DNA of 64,000 nt. Source: Escherichia phage vB_EcoM_G4507. The notes below the pieces were generated by a model. The model was not told where the DNA came from. It did not search any database and saw nothing but the letters and a program-made list of their open reading frames with translations. Positions 1-53,654 of the stretch are shown in pieces; the first letter of the stretch is position 1, and each line of letters starts with the position of its first letter. The stretch lies in sequence record NC_054919.1; one strand, given 5' to 3'. Both the position numbers and the translations under genes were made by a program.

Positions 1-2178
1 TTAGGCCGCAAGGGCCTTCATAGTTTTAGCGATTTGGGAAACTTCATCATCACTTAAAGAACTGCGATATCCGATGAAGTCGGAAACAATACGGAATTTC
101 TTGGTAAACTCAGCAACCATTTTATCACTGTTTTTTGAAGCATTATTTGATAATACATCAAAAAGATTAGTTACTGTCCAGATGTCATGACCGATGGTAT
201 CTTTTCCACCATTGAAATATACGCCCCGTAATGAACTAACTATATTAGCGAGTCGTGTATATTCTTCAGAAACTTCATCTGTACTGAAGTACTTCATCAT
301 AAAATCTAGTTCAGGATACTTGATAATTTTATCAATATATCGTTGAGCTGAACTTGAATAACCTACGTACTTATCATAATCTACATCATCAAAAGCATCT
401 ACATATAAATCACGCAGAGTTTCAAAAATACATTGGCACTGACCGAGTTCTTTTACCTTTTTCTGTAAAAGCGGACGAATAACATAAAATTCATTAATGC
501 CAATAAGATTAGCCATACGAATCAAAATATTCATAGATGGATGACAAAGAGATGTAGTACCATCCATAGAGAAAATATCAGAACGATGCATATACGCTAC
601 ATACCCAGTAATTTCATCTGCTTCTGATGTGAGCGTAAATAATTCCTCTTTTTCCCAGCGCCCGTCTTTAATTTCAAACTTAAATGCTGTAGCAGCTTTA
701 GGACGAGGAGCTTTACTTTTAACTACCTTTGGAATATAGCTTTTAACTAAAGCTTCAATTTCTGACAAATAATGAATGTTAACTTCATCACTTTCAAACA
801 TCGCCATAATATCAGGGAGTAAATCAATCTGCGATTCTACTTCTGGATTAATAAACAGAAGACGCTCATTGTGATGAATATTCAAAGTGTTATTAAATTC
901 ACTATCATCTAACGCATGTGCTAATCCACGAACAATATTAACACGATTTTTAATATCATCAATAACGATATTAATTTTTGTTGTATTAATACCAAACAGA
1001 CGATAACTTGATGCAACGGCTGAAGTTTCATGACTTTGCTTAATGCGCTTCAGTCGAGGGTCAAGATTTACTTCATACACAACTCCTGCATTGCATAACT
1101 TACTGTCAGGTTCAAACATGCTCTGCATCTTTTTATATGACAGATTTTTAGTCGTGAATTTGACTGAATTACTAATCATATAATCTCGAGCAGAATACCC
1201 CATCTTCATCAATTCACGATATGTGTGACGAGGAGATGTAGATTCTTTAAATCGTTTTACATCTTCATTAAATGCTTTCTCACTGAGTTCTTTAACTCGT
1301 TCAATAATATTTTTACGAGTACGATCATCCAGCGAAAGAGCCTCGCGTGATGGAGCAATATCAAGTGAACCCATTGGAAACTTAATGTAATTCACTTCAT
1401 TGCGAATGCTTAGCCAGTTACGGTCTCTAATAACACCATCGATAGGATAAACAATACCGCCATAGATAGCATATAATCCACCACGATCAGGCCAGTATCT
1501 TTCTGGATTTACGCCATAATAATCATCGAAATCCGGAAAATAATCAATTTCGCGGTCAAGACCATTAATGATAGCCAAATCTTTGAACGGTCGCATGATA
1601 TAAGAAACTTCATAAGCAAAGTTTCTAAAGTCTTTTTCTTCAACTGGAACTACGATTTCAATACCAGTTTTATCATCTGGACCCATTTCTTTTACGAATG
1701 TAGGTTTAATCTGTGGACCATCACCATCCATGTAAGCTACATAACCACGAATTTCACCTTTATGGTATGAAGTAATACTAAATGTATCAGTATAACTAAA
1801 CGGAGATTTAGAACCTAAACCAAATCCGCCAATGAAATCGTTAGATTCGGCTTTAGATGAACTGAAGTATGAATTATACAGACCAGGAGAATTATCATCA
1901 CCCTGAATATCAAAATCACTCATACCCGGACCAAAATCTCGACAAACAAATCGTGGATCTAATCGTCCTGGAACTTGAATGATAAATTTTTCAGGATTTC
2001 CATTGAGAGCATGAGCATCAATCATGTTAGTAATCAATTCACGAACTACTGCGCGAATCTTGTTTGTATACAAATCAGATGACAGAATTTTAAATACTTT
2101 AGGAGATGCTGTGATGCTAAATGCTTTTGATTTAGAACCATTACCAAGAATTGTTTCTTTTTCAGTGGTGATAATCAT
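1..2178 (-). CDS. rIIA: rIIA protein
   Basis: 725-aa ORF; N-terminus [12 protein letters not shown] and length match T4 rIIA as recalled; stop codon at window positions 1-3. Confidence 0.93.
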
Positions 2179-2447: not shown

Positions 2448-4264
2448 TATTGGCTCATCCATTCTTTACGAAGGTCAGCATTATCTCCCATGAGCATTTC
2501 AAAAAGCTCTTTCCAGTTCTCAGGAAGTTTAACAACATCATATACTGGGTTTTGAATCATCTCACGATATTCAGATTTTTCCAAAGAGCCAAGTCCCTTA
2601 ATATAACGGATGCTATGTTTAGGTAGAGCATCTTTGGCACTCTCATATTCAGCGACTGTATAAAACCATTCTTGTTTTTTACCGACCTGAGCGATGATTA
2701 CAGGAGTTTTGACAAAGCGAATTCTTCCTTGTTCAAACAGTTCTGGCCAATTACTAAAAAATCCGAGCAGAGAAGGATAAATGCTTCCTAAACCATCATG
2801 GTCAGCATCGGTCATAATAGCAATATTATGATAATTCAAGTTTTCAGCTTTTTCACCAAGAACTAATCCAGTGATTGCGCAAATATCAAATAGTTCTTTG
2901 TTTTTAAGCATATCAGCATATGACATACCCCAACTGTTGAGAACTTTACCACGCAATGGATAACCACCATGAAGTTCTTTATCACGAACATCAATAAGAT
3001 ATCCGATAGCAGAATCACCCTCAGTCAAGAAAAGAGTAGTGTCAGCATCTTTACCACAAAGATTCGCTTTGATATGTTTATGAACCTTAGCTTTAGAAGC
3101 CTTTTTAGCTGCTTTAGTTTCTGCTGCTTTTTCTGCTGCCAATTTACGTGCTAAAGCAGCTTCAATAATCGGCATTAAAATTGCTTCATTATTTAGAATA
3201 GCGCGTGAAATCTTTTTAGCATCAAGTTGAATATGACTACGAATTTCACCAAAAGGAGAAGTAAGTCGTTCTTTAGTTTGAGAATCAAATCGCATGTTTT
3301 TCATATCACGGACAAACATAACGATAGTCAAACATTCTTTGACACGCGCTTTAGTTACATCAATTTTGAACTTACGTTTGATTTGTGGAATAAGGTCTTC
3401 ACAAATATCATCCATAACACAGTCAATGTGATGGCCACCATTCTTAGTGTGAATGTTATTCACATAAGTTAATTGACGAAAACCATCCGGTGAACGACCA
3501 ACCGCAATAGAACAATTTTCTTGTTCTTGAACAATAGCATGTTCATCATACTGTCGTGCATATTTCTTAAAATTGCCCTGAACCTTTTTACCATTAAAGG
3601 TAAATTGAATATCAGGATAAACAACAGCAAGTGTCTGGAGACGATCTAGTGTAATGTCAAGATAAACTTGAGACAGCTCATTAGTTTCAAATGACATAAA
3701 ATCTGGAATGAAAGTAACACGAGTTCCTTTCCATTTTCCAGGAATAGTTTCCCATGATTTATTTTCCATGCCATTTGAACAACGAACTACAATATTATTT
3801 TGACCATCGCCAGTTTCACCGACAAACATCACAGAAAAAATGTTAGTTAAACTAGAACCAACACCATTCATACCACCGGTGACACGTTCTTTATCATCAC
3901 CAAAGTTACCACCTGCTTTTGGAATAGTCCATGCAGCAACAGGACCAGGAATTTCTTCACCGGTAGGTGTTTTAACCATCGCCTGCGGAATACCACGACC
4001 GTTATCTTCAACTGTTACTTGATTGTTTTTAATAGTAACATTAATTTTATTTGCGAATTTAAACTTAGTACGAATACCTTCATCTACTGAGTTATCGATA
4101 ATTTCATCAATAAGCTTAACAAGACCAGGTACATACTGAACACTTTCCCATTTACCAAACAGAAAGCGCTCATGCATTTCATTAGCAGAAGAGCCAATGT
4201 ACATGCCACTACGCTTTTTGATATGTTCAATATCGCTCAGAATTTTAATTTCATTCTTAATCAT
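2447..4264 (-). CDS. 39: DNA topoisomerase II large subunit (GyrB-like ATPase plus C-terminal part that is separate gene 60 in T4)
   Basis: 605 aa from ATG (track ORF begins one codon earlier at GTG); TOPRIM-type motifs EGDSA and IMTDADHDG; GAGGA RBS. Confidence 0.93.
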   Translation of the reverse strand: MIKNEIKILSDIEHIKKRSGMYIGSSANEMHERFLFGKWESVQYVPGLVKLIDEIIDNSVDEGIRTKFKFANKINVTIKNNQVTVEDNGRGIPQAMVKTPTGEEIPGPVAAWTIPKAGGNFGDDKERVTGGMNGVGSSLTNIFSVMFVGETGDGQNNIVVRCSNGMENKSWETIPGKWKGTRVTFIPDFMSFETNELSQVYLDITLDRLQTLAVVYPDIQFTFNGKKVQGNFKKYARQYDEHAIVQEQENCSIAVGRSPDGFRQLTYVNNIHTKNGGHHIDCVMDDICEDLIPQIKRKFKIDVTKARVKECLTIVMFVRDMKNMRFDSQTKERLTSPFGEIRSHIQLDAKKISRAILNNEAILMPIIEAALARKLAAEKAAETKAAKKASKAKVHKHIKANLCGKDADTTLFLTEGDSAIGYLIDVRDKELHGGYPLRGKVLNSWGMSYADMLKNKELFDICAITGLVLGEKAENLNYHNIAIMTDADHDGLGSIYPSLLGFFSNWPELFEQGRIRFVKTPVIIAQVGKKQEWFYTVAEYESAKDALPKHSIRYIKGLGSLEKSEYREMIQNPVYDVVKLPENWKELFEMLMGDNADLRKEWMSQ

Positions 4265-4316
4265 CACTTATCCTCGTTTGGTTTCGGGAATATTATACTC
4301 CGGCAATTATAAAGCT

Positions 4317-4331
4317 AAAGGCCCGAAGGCC
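4317..4331 (-). terminator. hairpin GGCC-ttcg-GGCC flanked by T-runs on both strands
   Basis: Between lipoprotein gene and gene 39 start. Confidence 0.55.
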
Positions 4332-4333
4332 TT

Positions 4334-4603
4334 TTATTTAAAACGAATAGTTGAATCCTTAAAGAACAGCCCAGAACATACTGTTCCTTCTACTTTCTGC
4401 CCGGTAGGTCCAACAGCACGAAATCCAGTATGTTGGAAATCATTTTCAGAGCAACCGAACCAGTTATATCCAGTGATTTCAATATTCGTAAAACCACTTG
4501 ATGATAAAATTTTAGTTGCATTATCAGCATCAGTACATCCTACTAAAGATACTGCTAATACTAATGCTGCGATAGAACGATTAACATATTTCATAATTTT
4601 CAC
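4334..4603 (-). CDS. putative lipoprotein
   Basis: 89 aa; signal peptide with lipobox LVGC; terminator hairpin just downstream. Confidence 0.6.
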   Translation of the reverse strand: MKIMKYVNRSIAALVLAVSLVGCTDADNATKILSSSGFTNIEITGYNWFGCSENDFQHTGFRAVGPTGQKVEGTVCSGLFFKDSTIRFK

Positions 4604-45752: not shown

Positions 45753-46142
45753 TTAATCCAAAATATTATTAGGCATTGGTTGAACACTCACAAGTTCTTT
45801 AAAGAACTCAGTAGAATCAGGCAATTTAACCATTTCCGGAGCATGCTTACTGAATTTATGTTTACATTGACGGCATTTATATTCAAGCTCTGGTTTACGC
45901 CAGTTAATCAATTGAACTTGTTCAGTACCGCATTCAGGGCAATTAGGAACGTTTTTAGAAGCTCTTTCACGTCGTTCAACCATAGCCATAATAGCATCCC
46001 ATGCTGGAGGTTTAAAATCTAAATCGTCGCAGCCGTGAATCTTTCCACGCATTTCCATATCATCTTCCTCACCAGCCATAATAATTTTAATTAAACTGGA
46101 ATTACTTGAAGCTGCAATGTCTTCTAATAAACGCTTTTTCAT
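45753..46142 (-). CDS. hypothetical protein with zinc-ribbon motif
   Basis: 129 aa; CPECG...CRQCKHKF. Confidence 0.55.
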
Positions 46143-47068
46143 TTCAATACCTCAATAGCATTACGTAAACCATTTGCTTTGGCGGTTAAAGCCTTAAGAA
46201 CTTTAGTATGCTCTTCAATTTGTTTTTCAACTTCAGTCAAACGGGCATTGAGATATTCACGTTCTTCACCCAGATTATCAACCTTTTCTACTTTAGGCTC
46301 TTTTACAACTGTCTTATATGTATTAGGGTTCTTCAGTTTAATTAGAATGCGTGAACTGTATAACATTGAACCATTATCTTCGGTTTCGTCATACATTTCC
46401 ACTACGTCCATAATTTTTAACATCATGCGGAGTTTATAAGACAACGAACGAATAGTTTTGTTGTGCTTATTAATTTCTTTAGCTGTCATGGTGCCGAGAT
46501 TACGTGAGTAATAATAAGGAACCTGGATATTAATTAATACTGATGAACCACCTGGCTTGTGTGTTACTTCATCAGCAATAACCCAGTCCTTAACATGAAC
46601 TGTATTTGTACGGTCATTGCCCGCGGTAAATAGTTTGCGAGCATGCTTAAAAAGCATATTCACTTGGGTATTGAATTGACAAGCAAATTTATCAGCAAAT
46701 TTAGTTTCAGGAATGGTAGATAACCAATCAGCCAAATGGGTCTTTTTAACATCGTTAACAATAGTAAATTGAACCAAATCGGTTATAGATGTCTCAGATT
46801 TAATAAAGCTCGGCTTCATAAAGTTTTTAATGTTATCGCGAGCTACAGTAGAAGATAACATACGAGAACGTTTAAACCATTCAAGCAAATTGCCTAACGA
46901 ATGAGAATAAGCGTTTTGAGTATCTTTACAGATATGATTTTCCTGGCCAACATATTGAAGGAAATCACGAAGAATATTATTGATTACTGCTCTGTGTCCG
47001 ATCTGATAATTACGATGTTTAGTAATAAGACTGTCAAAATAATCAATATAATGTTTACGAGTTTTCAT
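46139..47068 (-). CDS. hypothetical protein with C-terminal coiled coil (family member 1 of 4)
   Basis: 309-aa ORF. Confidence 0.6.
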   Translation of the reverse strand: MKTRKHYIDYFDSLITKHRNYQIGHRAVINNILRDFLQYVGQENHICKDTQNAYSHSLGNLLEWFKRSRMLSSTVARDNIKNFMKPSFIKSETSITDLVQFTIVNDVKKTHLADWLSTIPETKFADKFACQFNTQVNMLFKHARKLFTAGNDRTNTVHVKDWVIADEVTHKPGGSSVLINIQVPYYYSRNLGTMTAKEINKHNKTIRSLSYKLRMMLKIMDVVEMYDETEDNGSMLYSSRILIKLKNPNTYKTVVKEPKVEKVDNLGEEREYLNARLTEVEKQIEEHTKVLKALTAKANGLRNAIEVLK

Positions 47069-47119
47069 GTTCTTCTCACTTGTTAATGATTTATACTCCG
47101 AGCCATCCTTGGCTTTAAA

Positions 47120-48121
47120 TTACTTAATTAACTGTAAAGCTTGTTCAAGACGATCCAAGCGATTAACAGATTCTTCCCAAATCTTTTTAGCCTTCTCATA
47201 TTCTTTCTGCGCTTTATTAGAAATTTCTAGAACTTCTTTATAAGCTTTTTCTAGTGCAACAACTTCTGGACGAATTTCTACCGGTTCAAGTGAATCGTCA
47301 AGATTATCCATTAGTTCCTCAAGGGTAGTTTCTTCTTTAGGAGTATTCACAATTTCTTCGCATTTTTGTTGGTAAATTTCTTTATCAGTTAGTGAATAAG
47401 CACATTTCACTTCACGAAGACTAATTACAATTTTATATCCTTCCCAACCACCAATATTTTTGAAAGGATATGTATGAATACTTTTTACAGTTTCCATACA
47501 ATCCAAAGCCGTCTCTAATTGATGAGTTATAGTGCTAGCAATTGAGAAAAATTTATTAATATTCTTTTGGTTAGCTTCTGGTGTAAAAAATTCATAATTC
47601 ACAAAAATAGCTACTTTATTTTTATCAAGCTCATATTCTTTTACGATAATCATATCAGAAGCCAAAGGATGAATTTGACGATAATCGCCATAACATAATT
47701 TAGAAGCTGATTTTAGAATTTGTCCTTTAAAAAGTCTGAAATTACTAATCCAACGACGAGTAAAAATATTCTTAGGGTCTTCTTTGATATTAAGATGATA
47801 AGAATTAACATCACCGAACCAATTGTATCCTATTACACCTTTAGTTCGTTTAATTTCTTTCCCAAAATTACCAAGAATATCCCGATTAACTAAATATGAA
47901 AGAAGACGAGACCCTTTAAAGATTATCTTAATATCATCTTTATCTACACGGCTAGAAATTTCACGAACTTCATGAATAAATTTACTGGAAGAAACAATAC
48001 TTGCATCAATACTGCTGAGCCATTGATTGATAATAGAAAGAACAGCGTTCTGACTAGACATGGGTTTAACTTTATCATCAATAACCCCATTGAATGATTT
48101 GATATATTCGTTACGAGTCAT
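47120..48121 (-). CDS. hypothetical protein with C-terminal coiled coil (member 2)
   Basis: Start moved to MTRNEYIKSF (GAGGAG RBS); track start overlaps promoter. Confidence 0.6.
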   Translation of the reverse strand: MTRNEYIKSFNGVIDDKVKPMSSQNAVLSIINQWLSSIDASIVSSSKFIHEVREISSRVDKDDIKIIFKGSRLLSYLVNRDILGNFGKEIKRTKGVIGYNWFGDVNSYHLNIKEDPKNIFTRRWISNFRLFKGQILKSASKLCYGDYRQIHPLASDMIIVKEYELDKNKVAIFVNYEFFTPEANQKNINKFFSIASTITHQLETALDCMETVKSIHTYPFKNIGGWEGYKIVISLREVKCAYSLTDKEIYQQKCEEIVNTPKEETTLEELMDNLDDSLEPVEIRPEVVALEKAYKEVLEISNKAQKEYEKAKKIWEESVNRLDRLEQALQLIK

Positions 48122-48149
48122 ATTAATCTCCTCAGTAGAAAGTAAGAAC

Positions 48150-48179
48150 ATTATACCACATCCTTGTGGCAAAGTAAAC
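48150..48179 (-). promoter_or_regulatory. early-type promoter (GTTTAC -35, TGgTATAAT -10)
   Basis: Near-identical to promoter at 2418..2447. Confidence 0.55.
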
Positions 48180-49198
48180 TAGTTCAGTGCATTTAATGCA
48201 TTGTTCAGTTTAGAACGTTGCTTTGTCAGATTTTGAACCCTTGACTGAGCTTGTTCTAACACCTTTTCAGCTTCTAGCACTTCATTGGTCGCTTTAACGA
48301 GTTCAGCATCTACTGCCTTAAGAGACTTCTCAATCGCGTCAGCGTGCCATTTTTCTACAGGTTTAAAATTTGAATTTTCAGTAGGAAGAAAACTCACTTT
48401 ATTAAGTTTACATGCATCATTATTACCTGAACTATACATCCAAAATTTAGGATCGTTTGATAAGTAATTGGATAAATTTAAGTTATCTTGTACTTCTTGC
48501 TTTTTCTCTTGCGTGACTTCGTCCTTTCTCAAAAAATCATATTTAAATGAAACGATCATATCAAGTTCATATGATGTTGTATCTAACTTAAATCGTTCAA
48601 AACGAGGTAAAATCTTAGATTGAACAGCAGCAACAACATCCATATACTTAAATGCTTCTATCAGCTGTGATTTAAGGCATTCACAAATTGAAAGAGAATT
48701 TTTAGTATTAGGCTTAAAGCTAATTCGTGCAGTTCTATTATTTTCTTTTAACGGTCTTACTTCCATCTGAAGAGTATAACCATCAAATTTCAGGTTCTTT
48801 AAGTTAATGTCAGAACCTTTTAATCGACTAGCCGTCGACAAAATTTGCTTTAATTGTTTACGGAATAGAGCAATAAATCTCCATTCAATACGATAATGAT
48901 TTGGATTGAAAAATCCAGATGATAAATCGACCTTACTTTGACCAACGCCTTGAACAAATAGAGGATTTTTATAATCAATAGTTTTACAGAAATCGGTGAG
49001 CTGCTCACGAGCAGTCATTTGTGTAATATACCCTGCTTCATTAAAATTACGCACCCATTCACTGCTATTCATATATTTAAAGTGAATATCACGATTAACT
49101 TTATCAGGGTCTAAATTATTTTGGCACAAAAATGTCATAACATCACGAGTATAGCTGGCATTACGAACCATATCTTCAATTTGAGAACGAGTTTTCAT
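48179..49198 (-). CDS. hypothetical protein with C-terminal coiled coil (member 3)
   Basis: 339-aa ORF. Confidence 0.6.
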   Translation of the reverse strand: MKTRSQIEDMVRNASYTRDVMTFLCQNNLDPDKVNRDIHFKYMNSSEWVRNFNEAGYITQMTAREQLTDFCKTIDYKNPLFVQGVGQSKVDLSSGFFNPNHYRIEWRFIALFRKQLKQILSTASRLKGSDINLKNLKFDGYTLQMEVRPLKENNRTARISFKPNTKNSLSICECLKSQLIEAFKYMDVVAAVQSKILPRFERFKLDTTSYELDMIVSFKYDFLRKDEVTQEKKQEVQDNLNLSNYLSNDPKFWMYSSGNNDACKLNKVSFLPTENSNFKPVEKWHADAIEKSLKAVDAELVKATNEVLEAEKVLEQAQSRVQNLTKQRSKLNNALNALN

Positions 49199-49206
49199 GG
49201 TGTTCC

Positions 49207-50094
49207 TTAAGATTTAAGTAAATCAACAATTTTAATTAATTTTTCACGTTCAGATTTAGCTTTACTACTCAGTCCAGATAGTCTGAAAATTTCATCGTCA
49301 TATTGTTGAATAGAAATATTCAGCTCTTCAATCTGTTTATTAAAATAATCAATTTGTTCAGAATGTTTTTCGTTACTACGAACTGGTACAGGGTTTGTAG
49401 GCAATTTAGTTGAACTGGATTCATCCGGGCGATAAATTAAAATACAACTTGAACCAATCGGGCATTTTGCACCAGATGAATATTCTAATGTTCCGGCTTC
49501 TTTTAAAACTTCAAAAGCTAAACAGAGATGATGCCCCATATTAACATAATCTGTAGAGCGAGCTCTGACGTAATAATCATCGCCGCGAATACTAAATTTA
49601 AAGCATTTAAGGTCTTCTGTGTTATTGGTCTTAAAAATCATTTGTTTATCTAGACCTTTAGCTAATCGAGCGCCTAATGCTAATAATCGTCGTTGATTTT
49701 CCCACAAATCTGCGATCATTTGGTCAAATGATAATTTCGGCATTAGTCGACCATAAAGGTCATATCCTTTATTATAATTACGAAGGATTTCACTCGCGTT
49801 AATACGAGACAATGCTCCAATTTTATTAAGGGCTTTCATAATGCGATTAGATAAACCCATTCCAGACCCGTTTGTTCGCTGCAAATGTTTTTCTAATCCA
49901 AATCCAATATCAACTTTAAACTTATCTAAAATTTCTGCATGAACATCTCTGTCAATAACATTCAAATCCAAAGTTGGGTTAAATCTATGAAAAAATTTAT
50001 CTGGCTCTCCACGACGAAGTACAGTCCATTCATTCATTTTTTTATTAACTAAAGATTTAATTACTGTATTGACATTATTAATTACTACTGACAT
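49207..50094 (-). CDS. hypothetical protein with C-terminal coiled coil (member 4)
   Basis: Start at MSVVINNVNT (GAGGA RBS); track start overlaps upstream gene. Confidence 0.6.
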   Translation of the reverse strand: MSVVINNVNTVIKSLVNKKMNEWTVLRRGEPDKFFHRFNPTLDLNVIDRDVHAEILDKFKVDIGFGLEKHLQRTNGSGMGLSNRIMKALNKIGALSRINASEILRNYNKGYDLYGRLMPKLSFDQMIADLWENQRRLLALGARLAKGLDKQMIFKTNNTEDLKCFKFSIRGDDYYVRARSTDYVNMGHHLCLAFEVLKEAGTLEYSSGAKCPIGSSCILIYRPDESSSTKLPTNPVPVRSNEKHSEQIDYFNKQIEELNISIQQYDDEIFRLSGLSSKAKSEREKLIKIVDLLKS

Positions 50095-50101
50095 ATTTTC
50101 C

Positions 50102-50509
50102 TCACTCAATTTCAATTTTACTAAATACACAGAATATGATGGAAAAGACTATATAAGCACCGCATATAGATTGAACTAATACCATTCCAAAGAACCAAAC
50201 GATATTATCAAACAATGTCTGTTTTACGTCGAAAGGACGTAAACTTACAGTAATATTATCACCTTTTTCTATTGAAGAATACATCTCTGGGGAAATATAT
50301 TCACTAAATCTATAACCGTCTTTGAGTTCATATACAGCAATAAACGATAAACTAGACCCCTTTCCTTGGGTTCCTGTGATAGTATTAACTACAGTAACAT
50401 CATAATCTTTATAGTGCATATAATCATTAATAGCATAATAACTATATGCAACTACTATACATAAACAACATATCAATAAATTCAATCTTTTAATTATCAA
50501 CTGTTTCAT
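50102..50509 (-). CDS. membrane protein
   Basis: 135 aa; N- and C-terminal hydrophobic segments. Confidence 0.55.
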   Translation of the reverse strand: MKQLIIKRLNLLICCLCIVVAYSYYAINDYMHYKDYDVTVVNTITGTQGKGSSLSFIAVYELKDGYRFSEYISPEMYSSIEKGDNITVSLRPFDVKQTLFDNIVWFFGMVLVQSICGAYIVFSIIFCVFSKIEIE

Positions 50510-50564: not shown

Positions 50565-51092
50565 TTATGCGAGTACCGTCTTTAACCGTTCTTCAAACTT
50601 CCGAAGAGTATTCTGGCGTTCAGCTCTTTGCTTTTTGTAAGTTTCAATACGCTCTGAAATGAGAGTGTATCGTTCATTTACTGATTCTTTCATAAAATCA
50701 GGAATTTCACGAGAAGCTTTAATCTCGTCAAATTTATCAATAACAGCTTGCTCTTCAGCAATTAAGTTATCATACATCAAAATATCTTTCTTGATGAACT
50801 CAATATCTTCTTGAGTTACACGAGATAATTTAGATGCTTTATCCTTTTTGTACTGTTCGTTAGTATCACGAGACCAGTGTAATGTACGATTTTTATTCGT
50901 ATTTTTGTAAATTTCTACAATACCAATCTCATCAATAATAACGATCCAATTCCAACGGGATTTGTAAATTTGTCCTCCATCAACTGTGATTTCACCTCCG
51001 ATTGAGATGTCATTAAAGAACTTGCTTTGTGCTTCAGATTTAAATTTACCATCGTTGTAATTTACCAAGTTGAAAATATCTTTAGCGTTCAT
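50565..51092 (-). CDS. hypothetical protein
   Basis: Start at MNAKDIFNLV with GGAGG RBS; track ORF extends into promoter. Confidence 0.55.
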   Translation of the reverse strand: MNAKDIFNLVNYNDGKFKSEAQSKFFNDISIGGEITVDGGQIYKSRWNWIVIIDEIGIVEIYKNTNKNRTLHWSRDTNEQYKKDKASKLSRVTQEDIEFIKKDILMYDNLIAEEQAVIDKFDEIKASREIPDFMKESVNERYTLISERIETYKKQRAERQNTLRKFEERLKTVLA

Positions 51093-51556: not shown

Positions 51557-52525
51557 TTATTTCAGAAGAGTAACCTCAGCGATTTCTTCCCAACCGTTTT
51601 TGTCGGTCATAATAAAGTCAGCAAGATAAAGAGCAGTACGCAGTGAAACATTGCGTAAACGATTAACATTGACTTTCATCCATGATAATGCTTTATAAGT
51701 TTCTTCATCAGAAAGACCGCGCTTTTGCATCATGTCAGTTGAAAGAATAACATCTTCAACCCTGACCATAATTTCTTCATTAGTGTGAACACCCAAATCC
51801 AAATAAACTGAGCGGGACACTAATGCTTGTAAATGTGGAGCAAGTTTAGTACCACGGTCTAATTCGCGGTCAATGTCAACGTTTGTGATAAAAACAATCG
51901 TTCCTTTAAATTCAAACTCACGCTCAATGCCTTTTTCTTCTAAGTAAGAAGATGCAGTGCTCCAGCAGACTTTACGGGTCTCTCCAGTGTCCAGAGCAGC
52001 TTTCAGAAGATTAAGAATGTCCATATCAGAGAAAACATCCACATCATCAATCAAAAGGACAGAATTCTCTTCACGATTATTCCAAAGCTGCTCATAAAGA
52101 CCAATACCAGAGATTTTACCATTAATGCTTTTATATTCAATGTATCCAATATCATTTGCTTTATTTAAAGCTTTATCTAAAGAATACGTTTTACCAATAC
52201 CCGCCGCACCAGAGATAATTAATGAACGAATGTTTCCGTTAATAATACCATTCGTCATCATTCCCATAACATTAAATCTTTTATTAATGCGGGTTTTCAT
52301 ATCTTCATATGATTCTTTAACTTCTTCAACTTTTACACCATCATATGAAATGTCTGATTTGTAAACCCAAACACCGCGACGTTTACCGTCAATTTCAACA
52401 AAAACTTTACCATCTCCTTGTGCATCTACCGGAGCATTATCTGGGAACCATTCACCTAAGAGCTCAAAAGTTCCAGAGATTTCTTTACCGAAGTAGATAC
52501 CCTTATTGATAGTTACAGTTTTCAT
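51557..52525 (-). CDS. P-loop AAA-type ATPase
   Basis: 322 aa from MKTVTINKG; Walker A GAAGIGKT, Walker B VLLIDDVD; leader shared with two other genes. Confidence 0.65.
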   Translation of the reverse strand: MKTVTINKGIYFGKEISGTFELLGEWFPDNAPVDAQGDGKVFVEIDGKRRGVWVYKSDISYDGVKVEEVKESYEDMKTRINKRFNVMGMMTNGIINGNIRSLIISGAAGIGKTYSLDKALNKANDIGYIEYKSINGKISGIGLYEQLWNNREENSVLLIDDVDVFSDMDILNLLKAALDTGETRKVCWSTASSYLEEKGIEREFEFKGTIVFITNVDIDRELDRGTKLAPHLQALVSRSVYLDLGVHTNEEIMVRVEDVILSTDMMQKRGLSDEETYKALSWMKVNVNRLRNVSLRTALYLADFIMTDKNGWEEIAEVTLLK

Positions 52526-52559
52526 TTTATTCTCCAAATCCGTATCAGTTGATAGTTGT

Positions 52560-52589
52560 ATAGTACCATAAAGCTTTATGCTTGTAAAC
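52560..52589 (-). promoter_or_regulatory. early-type promoter (GTTTAC -35, TACTAT -10)
   Basis: Upstream of AAA ATPase gene. Confidence 0.55.
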
Positions 52590-52605
52590 TGTTTTGTGAA
52601 AAAAT

Positions 52606-52628
52606 TTTTTGAAATAAAAAGGGAGCCC
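52606..52628 (-). terminator. intrinsic terminator
   Basis: Hairpin GGGAGCC-cgaa-GGCTCCC followed by UUUUU. Confidence 0.65.
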
Positions 52629-52640
52629 GAAGGCTCCCTA

Positions 52641-53654
52641 TCATTTATAATAACTTCGGTGGTTTTCAAGATAAACCCTCTCAAGGAAGTCATCCCAGAA
52701 ACCCATGTCTACTTTTTGCTGCATACCGTTCTTAGAAGCTTCAGTAGATGCTGCTTCTACTTGATCGACCACATCTTCCAAAAACTCTTGAACTATTTTA
52801 AATGGATGTTTACCCAACTTCACGTCGAGAATAAATGGAGCATCTTGAAGTGGATAAATCAAGTCACCAGTTTTGTAAATTTCCAATAGTTGAAGTCCAC
52901 CACGACAAGCATGACTCAGAGCTTTCCAGTCAATGCCTTCATTGGCTTCGGCCTTACGAGCACGTTCACCATATTCAGCATCTAATTTGTTCAGTGACTG
53001 CTTAAGCTCAATAAGAGAAAGCGTTGTCTGATATTTACGACCCAACACAGTGTAGAACGTTTGAGGACCTGTTTTCTCGTGGTTATGGAATACCCATTCA
53101 CAGAATTCGTTCTCTGGAAGACGATGCTTAATATCTTCAACTTTAGTACGACGATGCTTAATGGAACCGTCTTCTTGGTAATCAACCCACTGATCGGGGA
53201 TTTGATTAACGACTTTCAATACATCGCGTAATGCAGCCAAACGAGAACCTTTAACACCATATTTAGAGGCTTGTTTACGAACATATCCTAAATAAGATTT
53301 CATGTTCGTCGTATAAAAACGAGAACGGTTGTCTTGAATAAACTTCCACACATCAGGCAAATCAGATTTAACCACTAGTTCAGGTGGAGTGTGAAGCATA
53401 TCCAATGCTACAGTTTCACCATCTGCTGCTAATTTAAAGAAATACTTAAGACTATACAATTCATGGTCAATATCATCTTTAGTGTTTTTAGATGATGTGT
53501 TGTTGGTATTTTTACTCATATGCTCTTTAACATTTCCGATAAGAATATCACGAGCAGGAGGAACAAAAATTTCTTTAAAATCTACATCAGATTCTGGAGT
53601 AGAAGTTCCATAAAGATGACTACCAAAATAGCTTTTCATTACTGTTTTCATCAT
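52641..53654 (-). CDS. predicted nucleotidyltransferase (Pol-beta superfamily-like)
   Basis: 337 aa; N-terminal GSHLYGTSTPESDVDF (GS...DxD). Confidence 0.6.
   Translation of the reverse strand: MMKTVMKSYFGSHLYGTSTPESDVDFKEIFVPPARDILIGNVKEHMSKNTNNTSSKNTKDDIDHELYSLKYFFKLAADGETVALDMLHTPPELVVKSDLPDVWKFIQDNRSRFYTTNMKSYLGYVRKQASKYGVKGSRLAALRDVLKVVNQIPDQWVDYQEDGSIKHRRTKVEDIKHRLPENEFCEWVFHNHEKTGPQTFYTVLGRKYQTTLSLIELKQSLNKLDAEYGERARKAEANEGIDWKALSHACRGGLQLLEIYKTGDLIYPLQDAPFILDVKLGKHPFKIVQEFLEDVVDQVEAASTEASKNGMQQKVDMGFWDDFLERVYLENHRSYYK

Follow-up and report, generated by a model that had tools for sequence, protein, structure and literature searches.

Heptad-tailed, probably paralogous proteins encoded in tandem around the anti-Dsr1 gene nrdC.5 of T4-like phages

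Four neighbouring genes with heptad-repeat tails

T4 is the best-studied lytic phage, and some 4 kb of its early region continue to be listed as "hypothetical" or, wrongly, as "thioredoxin". We examined this region in Escherichia phage vB_EcoM_G4507 (NC_054919.1), within a 64,000-nucleotide stretch (the window) of what is a Tequatrovirus, or T4-like phage, genome. Four open reading frames (ORFs) stand there in a row, all on the minus strand, and the RB14 and T4 annotations identify them as nrdC.3, nrdC.4, nrdC.5 and nrdC.6 (Table 1). Why would a phage keep four such genes side by side? A first-pass annotation made from the sequence alone had taken them for a diversifying family of paralogs, each joining a divergent N-terminal domain to a short coiled coil. 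Profile-profile alignment of the four, together with structure prediction for NrdC.5 and NrdC.6, bears out a paralog family with a shared architecture, with a confidence that differs from member to member.

The genes themselves are real and lie where the first-pass annotation had placed them. Their starts agree with both reference annotations and each is preceded by a Shine-Dalgarno sequence; longer ORFs open at a TTG for nrdC.4 (extending to 48172) and at a GTG for nrdC.6 (extending to 50130). That the genome is T-even-like is also clear: the 4.6-kb stretch holding the array, in which every gene is on the minus strand, has matches in 739 phage records, with an identity of 99.5% to Escherichia phage ECP52 and of 95.7% to RB14. 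The genes are covered by existing entries of unknown function, namely PHROGs 1435, 2351 and 2257 and the Pfam families PF26897 and PF26899. NrdC.3 and NrdC.4 share both their PHROG and their Pfam family, PF26897, the latter assigned through annotated close homologues together with phrog_1435: it is carried by cluster representatives 81-94% identical to window NrdC.3, and by NrdC.4-type representatives retrieved with window NrdC.4 in the query alignment. Representatives 95-98% identical to window NrdC.6 carry PF26899.

One of the four has a published role, and the statement of the first-pass annotation that the array has no assigned function is to that extent wrong. The Dsr1 defence prevented a T4 clone with a compensatory deletion from plating on ECOR17, and the early gene nrdC.5, expressed alone, restored its plating on dsr1-carrying cells (Srikant et al. 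2022, eLife, PMC9391042). Dsr1 combines a SIR2 NADase with a TPR-repeat sensor, which a 2026 preprint reports to recognise phage major capsid proteins (PMC12803255). Window NrdC.5 is 94.7% identical to T4 NrdC.5 over its full length, has a full-length Pfam match and occupies the same position, the order nrdC.6-nrdC.5-nrdC.4 being common to the window, T4 and RB14. By sequence and position, the window gene is thus the orthologue of the T4 anti-Dsr1 gene; the activity is that of the T4 protein.

Table 1. Features of the nrdC.3-nrdC.6 array, in window coordinates
Feature	Positions	Strand	Details
nrdC.3 coding sequence	46139..47068	-	309 aa; PF26897 (Phage_T4_Y04OP) / phrog_1435, E 7e-114
NrdC.3 C-terminal heptad helix	46142..46276	-	residues 265-309; 85% hydrophobic a/d; top-scoring window 275-309
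NrdC.3 variable middle	46274..46828	-	residues about 81-265, window vs T4 NrdC.3
nrdC.4 coding sequence	47120..48121	-	333 aa from ATG behind GAGGAG Shine-Dalgarno; phrog_1435, E 2e-164
NrdC.4 C-terminal heptad helix	47123..47278	-	residues 282-333; 87% hydrophobic a/d
Sigma-70-type promoter-like site	48150..48178	-	TTTACT-17-TATAAT with TG; directly upstream of nrdC.4; 10/12 consensus matches
nrdC.5 coding sequence	48179..49198	-	339 aa; Pfam DUF7235 (PF23882), full length, 384.2 bits vs cut-off 30
NrdC.5 C-terminal heptad helix	48182..48352	-	residues 283-339; 94% hydrophobic a/d
NrdC.5 predicted disordered linker	48359..48529	-	residues 224-280; pLDDT <50; least conserved, indel site in family
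nrdC.6 coding sequence	49207..50094	-	295 aa; PF26899 (Phage_T4_Y05B); phrog_2257, E 6e-153
NrdC.6 C-terminal heptad helix	49210..49371	-	residues 242-295; 80% hydrophobic a/d, in phase across predicted break 272-276

The feature that first ties the four proteins together is the C-terminus. Of the minus-strand ORFs in the window, 70 are at least 100 residues long, and when we ranked these by a home-made, register-aware heptad score, NrdC.3-6 and NrdC.8 were five of the first six, the remaining one being a long coiled-coil protein elsewhere in the window. In the best registers no heptad is interrupted over a stretch of 45-56 residues that reaches the last or second-last residue, and hydrophobic residues fill 80-94% of the a/d positions. 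All four tails thus have a continuous repeat of at least four heptads, as in a coiled coil. AlphaFold2 predicts the NrdC.5 tail as a single helix of 56 residues (283-338, with a predicted local distance difference test score, pLDDT, of 79-90 by block) and the NrdC.6 tail as two helices (242-271 and 277-294); the NrdC.5 tail has weak Pfam and PDB sequence matches, all of them to coiled-coil proteins. A terminal motif L-x-x-(A/I)-(L/I/V)-x-x-L-(K/N) is present at all four C-termini, with NrdC.6 ending in KLIKIVDLLKS, and a permissive form of it is found in 29/29, 47/47, 52/53 and 62/100 full-length members of the NrdC.3, NrdC.4, NrdC.5 and NrdC.6 families, respectively. The heptad-like tails and common ending noticed in the first reading therefore stand, and it is likely that all four tails are coiled coils. 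The N-termini are alike in a smaller way: NrdC.3 and NrdC.5 begin MKTR, the pair the first reading had picked out, and NrdC.4 begins MTR. The neighbouring NrdC.8 (50565-51092, minus strand; 175 residues, PF26901) also has a heptad-like C-terminal helix, ranked fourth by the same score.

Ahead of the tail, the roughly 270-residue N-terminal domain of the first-pass annotation proved divergent, as it had said; it is not a single domain, consisting instead of a globular region of about 220 residues and a linker of 15-60 residues that is modelled with low confidence. In three of the four families conservation is lowest in this linker, and the tail is the best-conserved segment, or among the best-conserved, within each family. 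Between paralogs the tails are unlike except for the last ten residues (tail-only hhalign E 6e-4 to 0.19), and counts of e/g charge pairs do not separate homo- from hetero-pairing.

Sequence profiles and predicted folds

Are these tails simply a fashion adopted separately by four unrelated proteins? In blastp no two of the four window proteins match significantly, and the four fall into three different Pfam families, as such convergence would lead one to expect. The relationship appears once other family members are brought in. Window NrdC.3 already matches T4 NrdC.4 by blastp (E 7e-7), and the NrdC.3 and NrdC.4 family profiles align by hhalign with 97% probability (E 1.5e-11, 237 columns), those of NrdC.4 and NrdC.5 with E 1e-5 to 2.5e-5 over 233 collinear columns. 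Removing the tails leaves the signal in place, at E 4.9e-12 for NrdC.3-NrdC.4 and E 4e-4 for NrdC.4-NrdC.5, so that it resides in the part of the protein that is not coiled.

NrdC.6 stands further apart. Direct hhalign comparisons of its profile with those of NrdC.3, NrdC.4 and NrdC.5 are not significant. An exhaustive HMMER search with a merged NrdC.3/4/5 profile against 1.84 billion cluster representatives finds no more than 20 proteins, of which six are distant full-length members encoded by T4-like phages of Klebsiella type, and once distant members are added the extended profile aligns with the NrdC.6 family at 90% probability (E 1.5e-6), or E 7e-5 with the NrdC.6 tail removed. Individual distant members bridge the families in the same way, P0251 matching NrdC.4 and NrdC.5, and P0256 matching NrdC.5, NrdC.3 and NrdC.6. 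Control comparisons with reversed and column-shuffled target alignments give E 0.003-0.95 (0.16-0.95 for the NrdC.6 comparison). NrdC.8, tried as a fifth member, was rejected, as it shares only the heptad tail (hhalign E 0.08-0.5); because this heptad-tailed protein shows no similarity of the kind seen among the four, the profile signal is not a coiled-coil artefact. The DUF7235 model does not recognise NrdC.3, NrdC.4 or NrdC.6 at E up to 1, and in a scan of 43 superfamily members it matches 17, though only 15 are of NrdC.5 type.

The predicted structures tell a similar story. Our AlphaFold2 models cover NrdC.5 (from the merged NrdC.3/4/5 alignment, pLDDT 69.5) and NrdC.6 (from its own family alignment, pLDDT 77.4), and were compared by the order of their elements and by their database matches. 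Both have the same topology, a helical N-terminal part, an αα-ββ-α-ββ core, a low-confidence linker and a long C-terminal helix, or, element by element, N-terminal helices, short hairpin, helix pair, β-hairpin, helix, β-hairpin, linker and terminal helix. Conserved sequence blocks map to the same helices in the two models: the N-terminal helix pair carries F-K-x-S-R-x-L-S...F-G-K (L-N-K-x-G-x-L-S-R...Y-N-K in NrdC.6), the second helix pair F-R-x-x-x-x-x-I-L-K-x-A-S-K-L-x-x-G-D (N-Q-R-R-L-L-A-L-G-A-R-L-A-K-G-x-D in NrdC.6), and the helix between the two β-hairpins Q-L-x-x-A-x-x-x-M-D-V-V. Searched against BFVD, the two models arrive at the same uncharacterised proteins, which belong to T4-like phages of Klebsiella and Erwinia, one from Klebsiella phage Mineola (E 5.5e-7 and 2.1e-4) and one from Erwinia phage Cronus (E 4e-6 and 1.4e-3).

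We are confident that NrdC.3, NrdC.4 and NrdC.5 are paralogs. NrdC.6, the most divergent copy and the least secure in its membership, probably belongs to the same superfamily. Independent acquisition of tails by four unrelated proteins is scarcely credible beside profile matches in the non-coiled part that lie well above the controls, an identical order of predicted secondary-structure elements in NrdC.5 and NrdC.6, structural matches common to both models, and the failure of heptad-tailed NrdC.8 to join the group, which indicates that a coiled coil alone does not suffice for a match by this method. The superfamily occurs only in T4-like phages. Joining PF26897, PF26899 and DUF7235 within it is new here, the relation of NrdC.3 to NrdC.4 being already present in Pfam and PHROGs, and literature searches found no paper on paralogy of NrdC.3-6 or on a single superfamily. 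Relative to T4 NrdC.5, window NrdC.3, NrdC.4 and NrdC.6 are thus remote paralogs, below 25% identity and below the DUF7235 threshold, with the same architecture.

Loss, recombination and divergence within the array

Across T4-like phages, where the first-pass annotation had suggested looking, copy number does vary, from one in a Klebsiella Jiaodavirus through three in pEC-M719-6WT.2 and a metagenomic contig to four in Tequatrovirus. The four are also unequally common: counted at E up to 1e-3, 740 phage records contain NrdC.6, whereas 652 contain NrdC.3, 552 NrdC.4 and 531 NrdC.5. Several genomes record how members are lost. In ACG-C40 (L003 6305-6716) a deletion runs from nrdC.5 into nrdC.3 and only nrdC.6 is kept; the "C-terminus only" match in this phage, considered as a case of head swapping, was rejected as a product of that deletion. 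Protein cluster P0056 is a fusion of NrdC.5 to NrdC.3 with nrdC.4 removed. Salmonella phage Manna (L008 3715-4752) encodes an in-frame hybrid in which residues 1-262 of NrdC.6, comprising the head and the first part of the helix, continue into the linker and tail of NrdC.4 (residues 251-333), nrdC.5 and most of nrdC.4 having been deleted. The array is accessory, dispensable and recombinationally plastic. In the three-paralog phages, a 71-residue predicted membrane protein that is absent from the window is encoded between the NrdC.6-like and NrdC.5-like genes (L004 6263-6478; L007 5777-5992).

The T4 reference itself (NC_000866) carries a lesion. A single-base deletion in nrdC.6, CTGAATATT becoming CTG-ATATT (L002 about 4240-4365, corresponding to window 49210-49320), shifts the frame, and the resulting product of 275 residues lacks the coiled-coil tail; the downstream DNA that would encode the tail is otherwise conserved and now appears as a 70-nt "intergenic" gap.

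This variation bears on whether the four proteins could assemble through their C-terminal helices into one hetero-oligomeric complex, making the array a single machine, for example one directed against Dsr1. The genes are adjacent and co-oriented, and the tails have a common register, with the same end point, and a similar terminal motif; the evolved T4 clone rescued by nrdC.5 alone may, moreover, have retained the other paralogs. A machine of fixed parts is nonetheless hard to reconcile with a copy number of one to four among related phages, with the many genomes that, like ACG-C40, keep nrdC.6 without nrdC.5 or nrdC.4, with the resistance of T4 to Dsr1 in spite of its tailless NrdC.6, or with paralog tails that are unlike beyond their last ten residues. 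We consider such a complex improbable.

A different role for the tail would make it the active element, an amphipathic helix that inserts into TPR-type sensors such as Dsr1 while the head modulates specificity or stability. Dsr1 does sense through a TPR-repeat domain (PMC12803255), and nothing is better conserved across paralogs and distant members than the tail and the exact point at which the chain ends. The exhaustive search also recovered P0255, a metagenomic protein of 173 residues that joins a 53-residue NrdC.5 tail, identical to that of some Tequatrovirus alleles, to an unrelated N-terminal part of 120 residues. P0255 could represent a genuine replacement of the head or else a chimera made in assembly, and its N-terminal part occurs in no phage genome record searched; a match to P0255 in Ec_YwIITB1 was set aside as simply a broken nrdC.5. 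Against an inserting tail stand the regular a/d heptads, which at such length are typical of self-association, and the loss of the tail from the T4 reference NrdC.6, and we judge this reading about as improbable as the hetero-oligomeric complex.

Window NrdC.3 is 61% identical to its T4 counterpart, against 97-99% for nrdC.1, nrdC.8, nrdC.9 and nrdC.10, and the difference lies in the middle of the protein, where blocks mostly have 5-12 of 20 identical residues (15 of 20 in block 201-220). The ends are nearly identical, with 14-19 of 20 over columns 1-80 and 19 of 20 followed by 10 of 10 over columns 281-310. A diverged middle between near-identical ends marks a mosaic allele, and this mosaic fits the diversification of the globular part that had been proposed at first sight. 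The adjoining nrdC.2 (45753-46142, minus strand) is a second strongly diverged allele; it encodes a 129-residue double CxxC zinc-ribbon protein that is identical to that of RB14 and only 61% identical to the 104-residue T4 protein.

Counter-defence and alternative roles

What might such proteins do? Searches of Pfam, NCBIfam, PADLOC and PDB sequences give none of the four a match to an enzyme family or of a catalytic type, and no catalytic-type motif is conserved across the superfamily. Profile searches of PDB sequences return only weak matches, mostly to coiled-coil proteins, and the sole PADLOC match, between the coiled-coil region of NrdC.4 and BrxC (15 bits, E 0.0012), is not a meaningful defence-system match. 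A PHL-domain match was rejected as below threshold. Many GenBank records label the products of nrdC.1 to nrdC.11, those of the four genes included, "thioredoxin" (noted for window 46139-50509), a label we reject for the four proteins, which have no thioredoxin or glutaredoxin match in Pfam or NCBIfam at E up to 1 and of which none contains a CxxC motif; it seems to have been carried over from the name of the neighbouring nrdC gene.

We think it rather likely that the four ORFs are anciently duplicated, strongly diverged tandem paralogs of a T4-like-phage superfamily that has expanded as oligomeric counter-defence binders. As early-expressed, dispensable host-range proteins, the paralogs would act without catalysis: the globular head would bind a host immune protein, and the C-terminal helix would form a homo-oligomeric coiled coil, giving avidity or fitting a target that is itself oligomeric. 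Once duplicated, the head could have diverged to give paralogs aimed at different targets. For NrdC.5, the shared head-linker-coiled-coil design suggests that it may act as an oligomer that binds an immune protein of the sirtuin/TPR kind. For NrdC.3, NrdC.4 and NrdC.6 we infer anti-defence roles from their kinship with NrdC.5, and the chance that at least one of the three is a counter-defence protein appears appreciable, if somewhat short of even.

Several observations weigh against this proposal. NrdC.5 is the only member with an experimental function, and its effect on Dsr1 could be indirect; in our literature searches nothing turned up on how NrdC.5 works or on any function of nrdC.3, nrdC.4 or nrdC.6. 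The place of NrdC.6 depends on profiles of low diversity (Neff about 2), on topology and on structural matches to third proteins that it has in common with NrdC.5, and the likeness of its fold to that of NrdC.5 was read from the order of elements in models of moderate confidence. The frameshift in T4 nrdC.6 may mean that the tail is dispensable, or that the T4 copy is dead.

A further alternative concerns three of the four genes, as NrdC.3, NrdC.4 and NrdC.6 could be host-takeover or regulatory proteins with no part in immunity, for example modulators of nucleic-acid metabolism, with only NrdC.5 recruited to counter-defence. Three of the four proteins have a net positive charge, and NrdC.6 is 95-99% identical in most Tequatrovirus records, unlike a fast-evolving arms-race gene. 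NrdC.3 also has weak matches, at residues 30-86, to the N-terminal SAM-like (core-binding) domain of tyrosine recombinases. We rejected this domain assignment: the matches are far below cut-offs (13 bits against 22.3 in Pfam, 18 against 279 in NCBIfam) and occur in 5 of 43 members, all of one subfamily, with a best E of 0.087. The genes are, moreover, dispensable and patchily distributed, and the sole characterised member of the family is a counter-defence factor. We regard a takeover role for the three as unlikely, though less so than either of the readings centred on the tails.

Returning to the counter-defence proposal, the closest parallels are found among other phage genes that disarm the host. 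The "anti-TA island" of T4, dmd-tifA-adfA, is likewise a cluster of small, dispensable early genes, each neutralising a host defence and lost in compensatory deletions (PMC9391042). Its genes are mutually unrelated, whereas the nrdC.3-6 cluster would have arisen by tandem duplication of one scaffold. DSAD1, a phage anti-DSR2 protein, is by its description a functional analogue that represses a defence-associated sirtuin NADase. The likeness claimed is one of function, and DSAD1 differs in its target, DSR2, which senses the tail tube, and in coming from a different phage group. We know of no coiled-coil tail in DSAD1.

More speculatively, the array could be the viral counterpart of an expanded immune-receptor family, each re-tuned head neutralising a different bacterial immune sensor, with Dsr1 as the target of NrdC.5, targets possibly of the TPR class for NrdC.3, NrdC.4 and NrdC.6, and paralog hybrids as a route to new specificities. 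As a whole we hold this extension to be rather unlikely, and the natural hybrids themselves suggest how such inhibitors might evolve. The finding is a concrete, testable hypothesis and not surprising in kind, the genes being long-annotated T4 ORFs, one of them with a published function. What is added here is the link of NrdC.3 and NrdC.4 with DUF7235 and PF26899, which nominates three candidate counter-defence genes. If nrdC.3, nrdC.4 and nrdC.6 are remote paralogs of the anti-Dsr1 gene, they are specific candidates that can be tested cheaply; should all three show no defence phenotype, the finding would reduce to the reclassification of three Pfam families into one superfamily.

The surroundings of the array add a few observations. 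In the numbering of the window, nrdC.2, nrdC.1 and nrdC lie upstream, and nrdC.7 (a membrane protein), nrdC.8, nrdC.9, nrdC.10 (AAA-type) and nrdC.11 (a nucleotidyltransferase) lie downstream. Scans for DNA-level repeats and Rfam families across the region give nothing beyond chance, and the sigma-70-type sites in a consensus scan are no more numerous in total than in shuffled sequence, so that the site ahead of nrdC.4 (Table 1) is to be read as a consensus match only. Just after the nrdC.11 stop, at 52620-52639, stands a strong GC-rich hairpin with a T-run behind it, which resembles a terminator on the minus strand. The mechanically called nrdC.10 ORF (51557-52693) extends 56 codons upstream of the annotated start, overlapping this hairpin and nrdC.11. 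In RB14 a seg-like endonuclease gene adjoins nrdC.10, and the window is without that gene.

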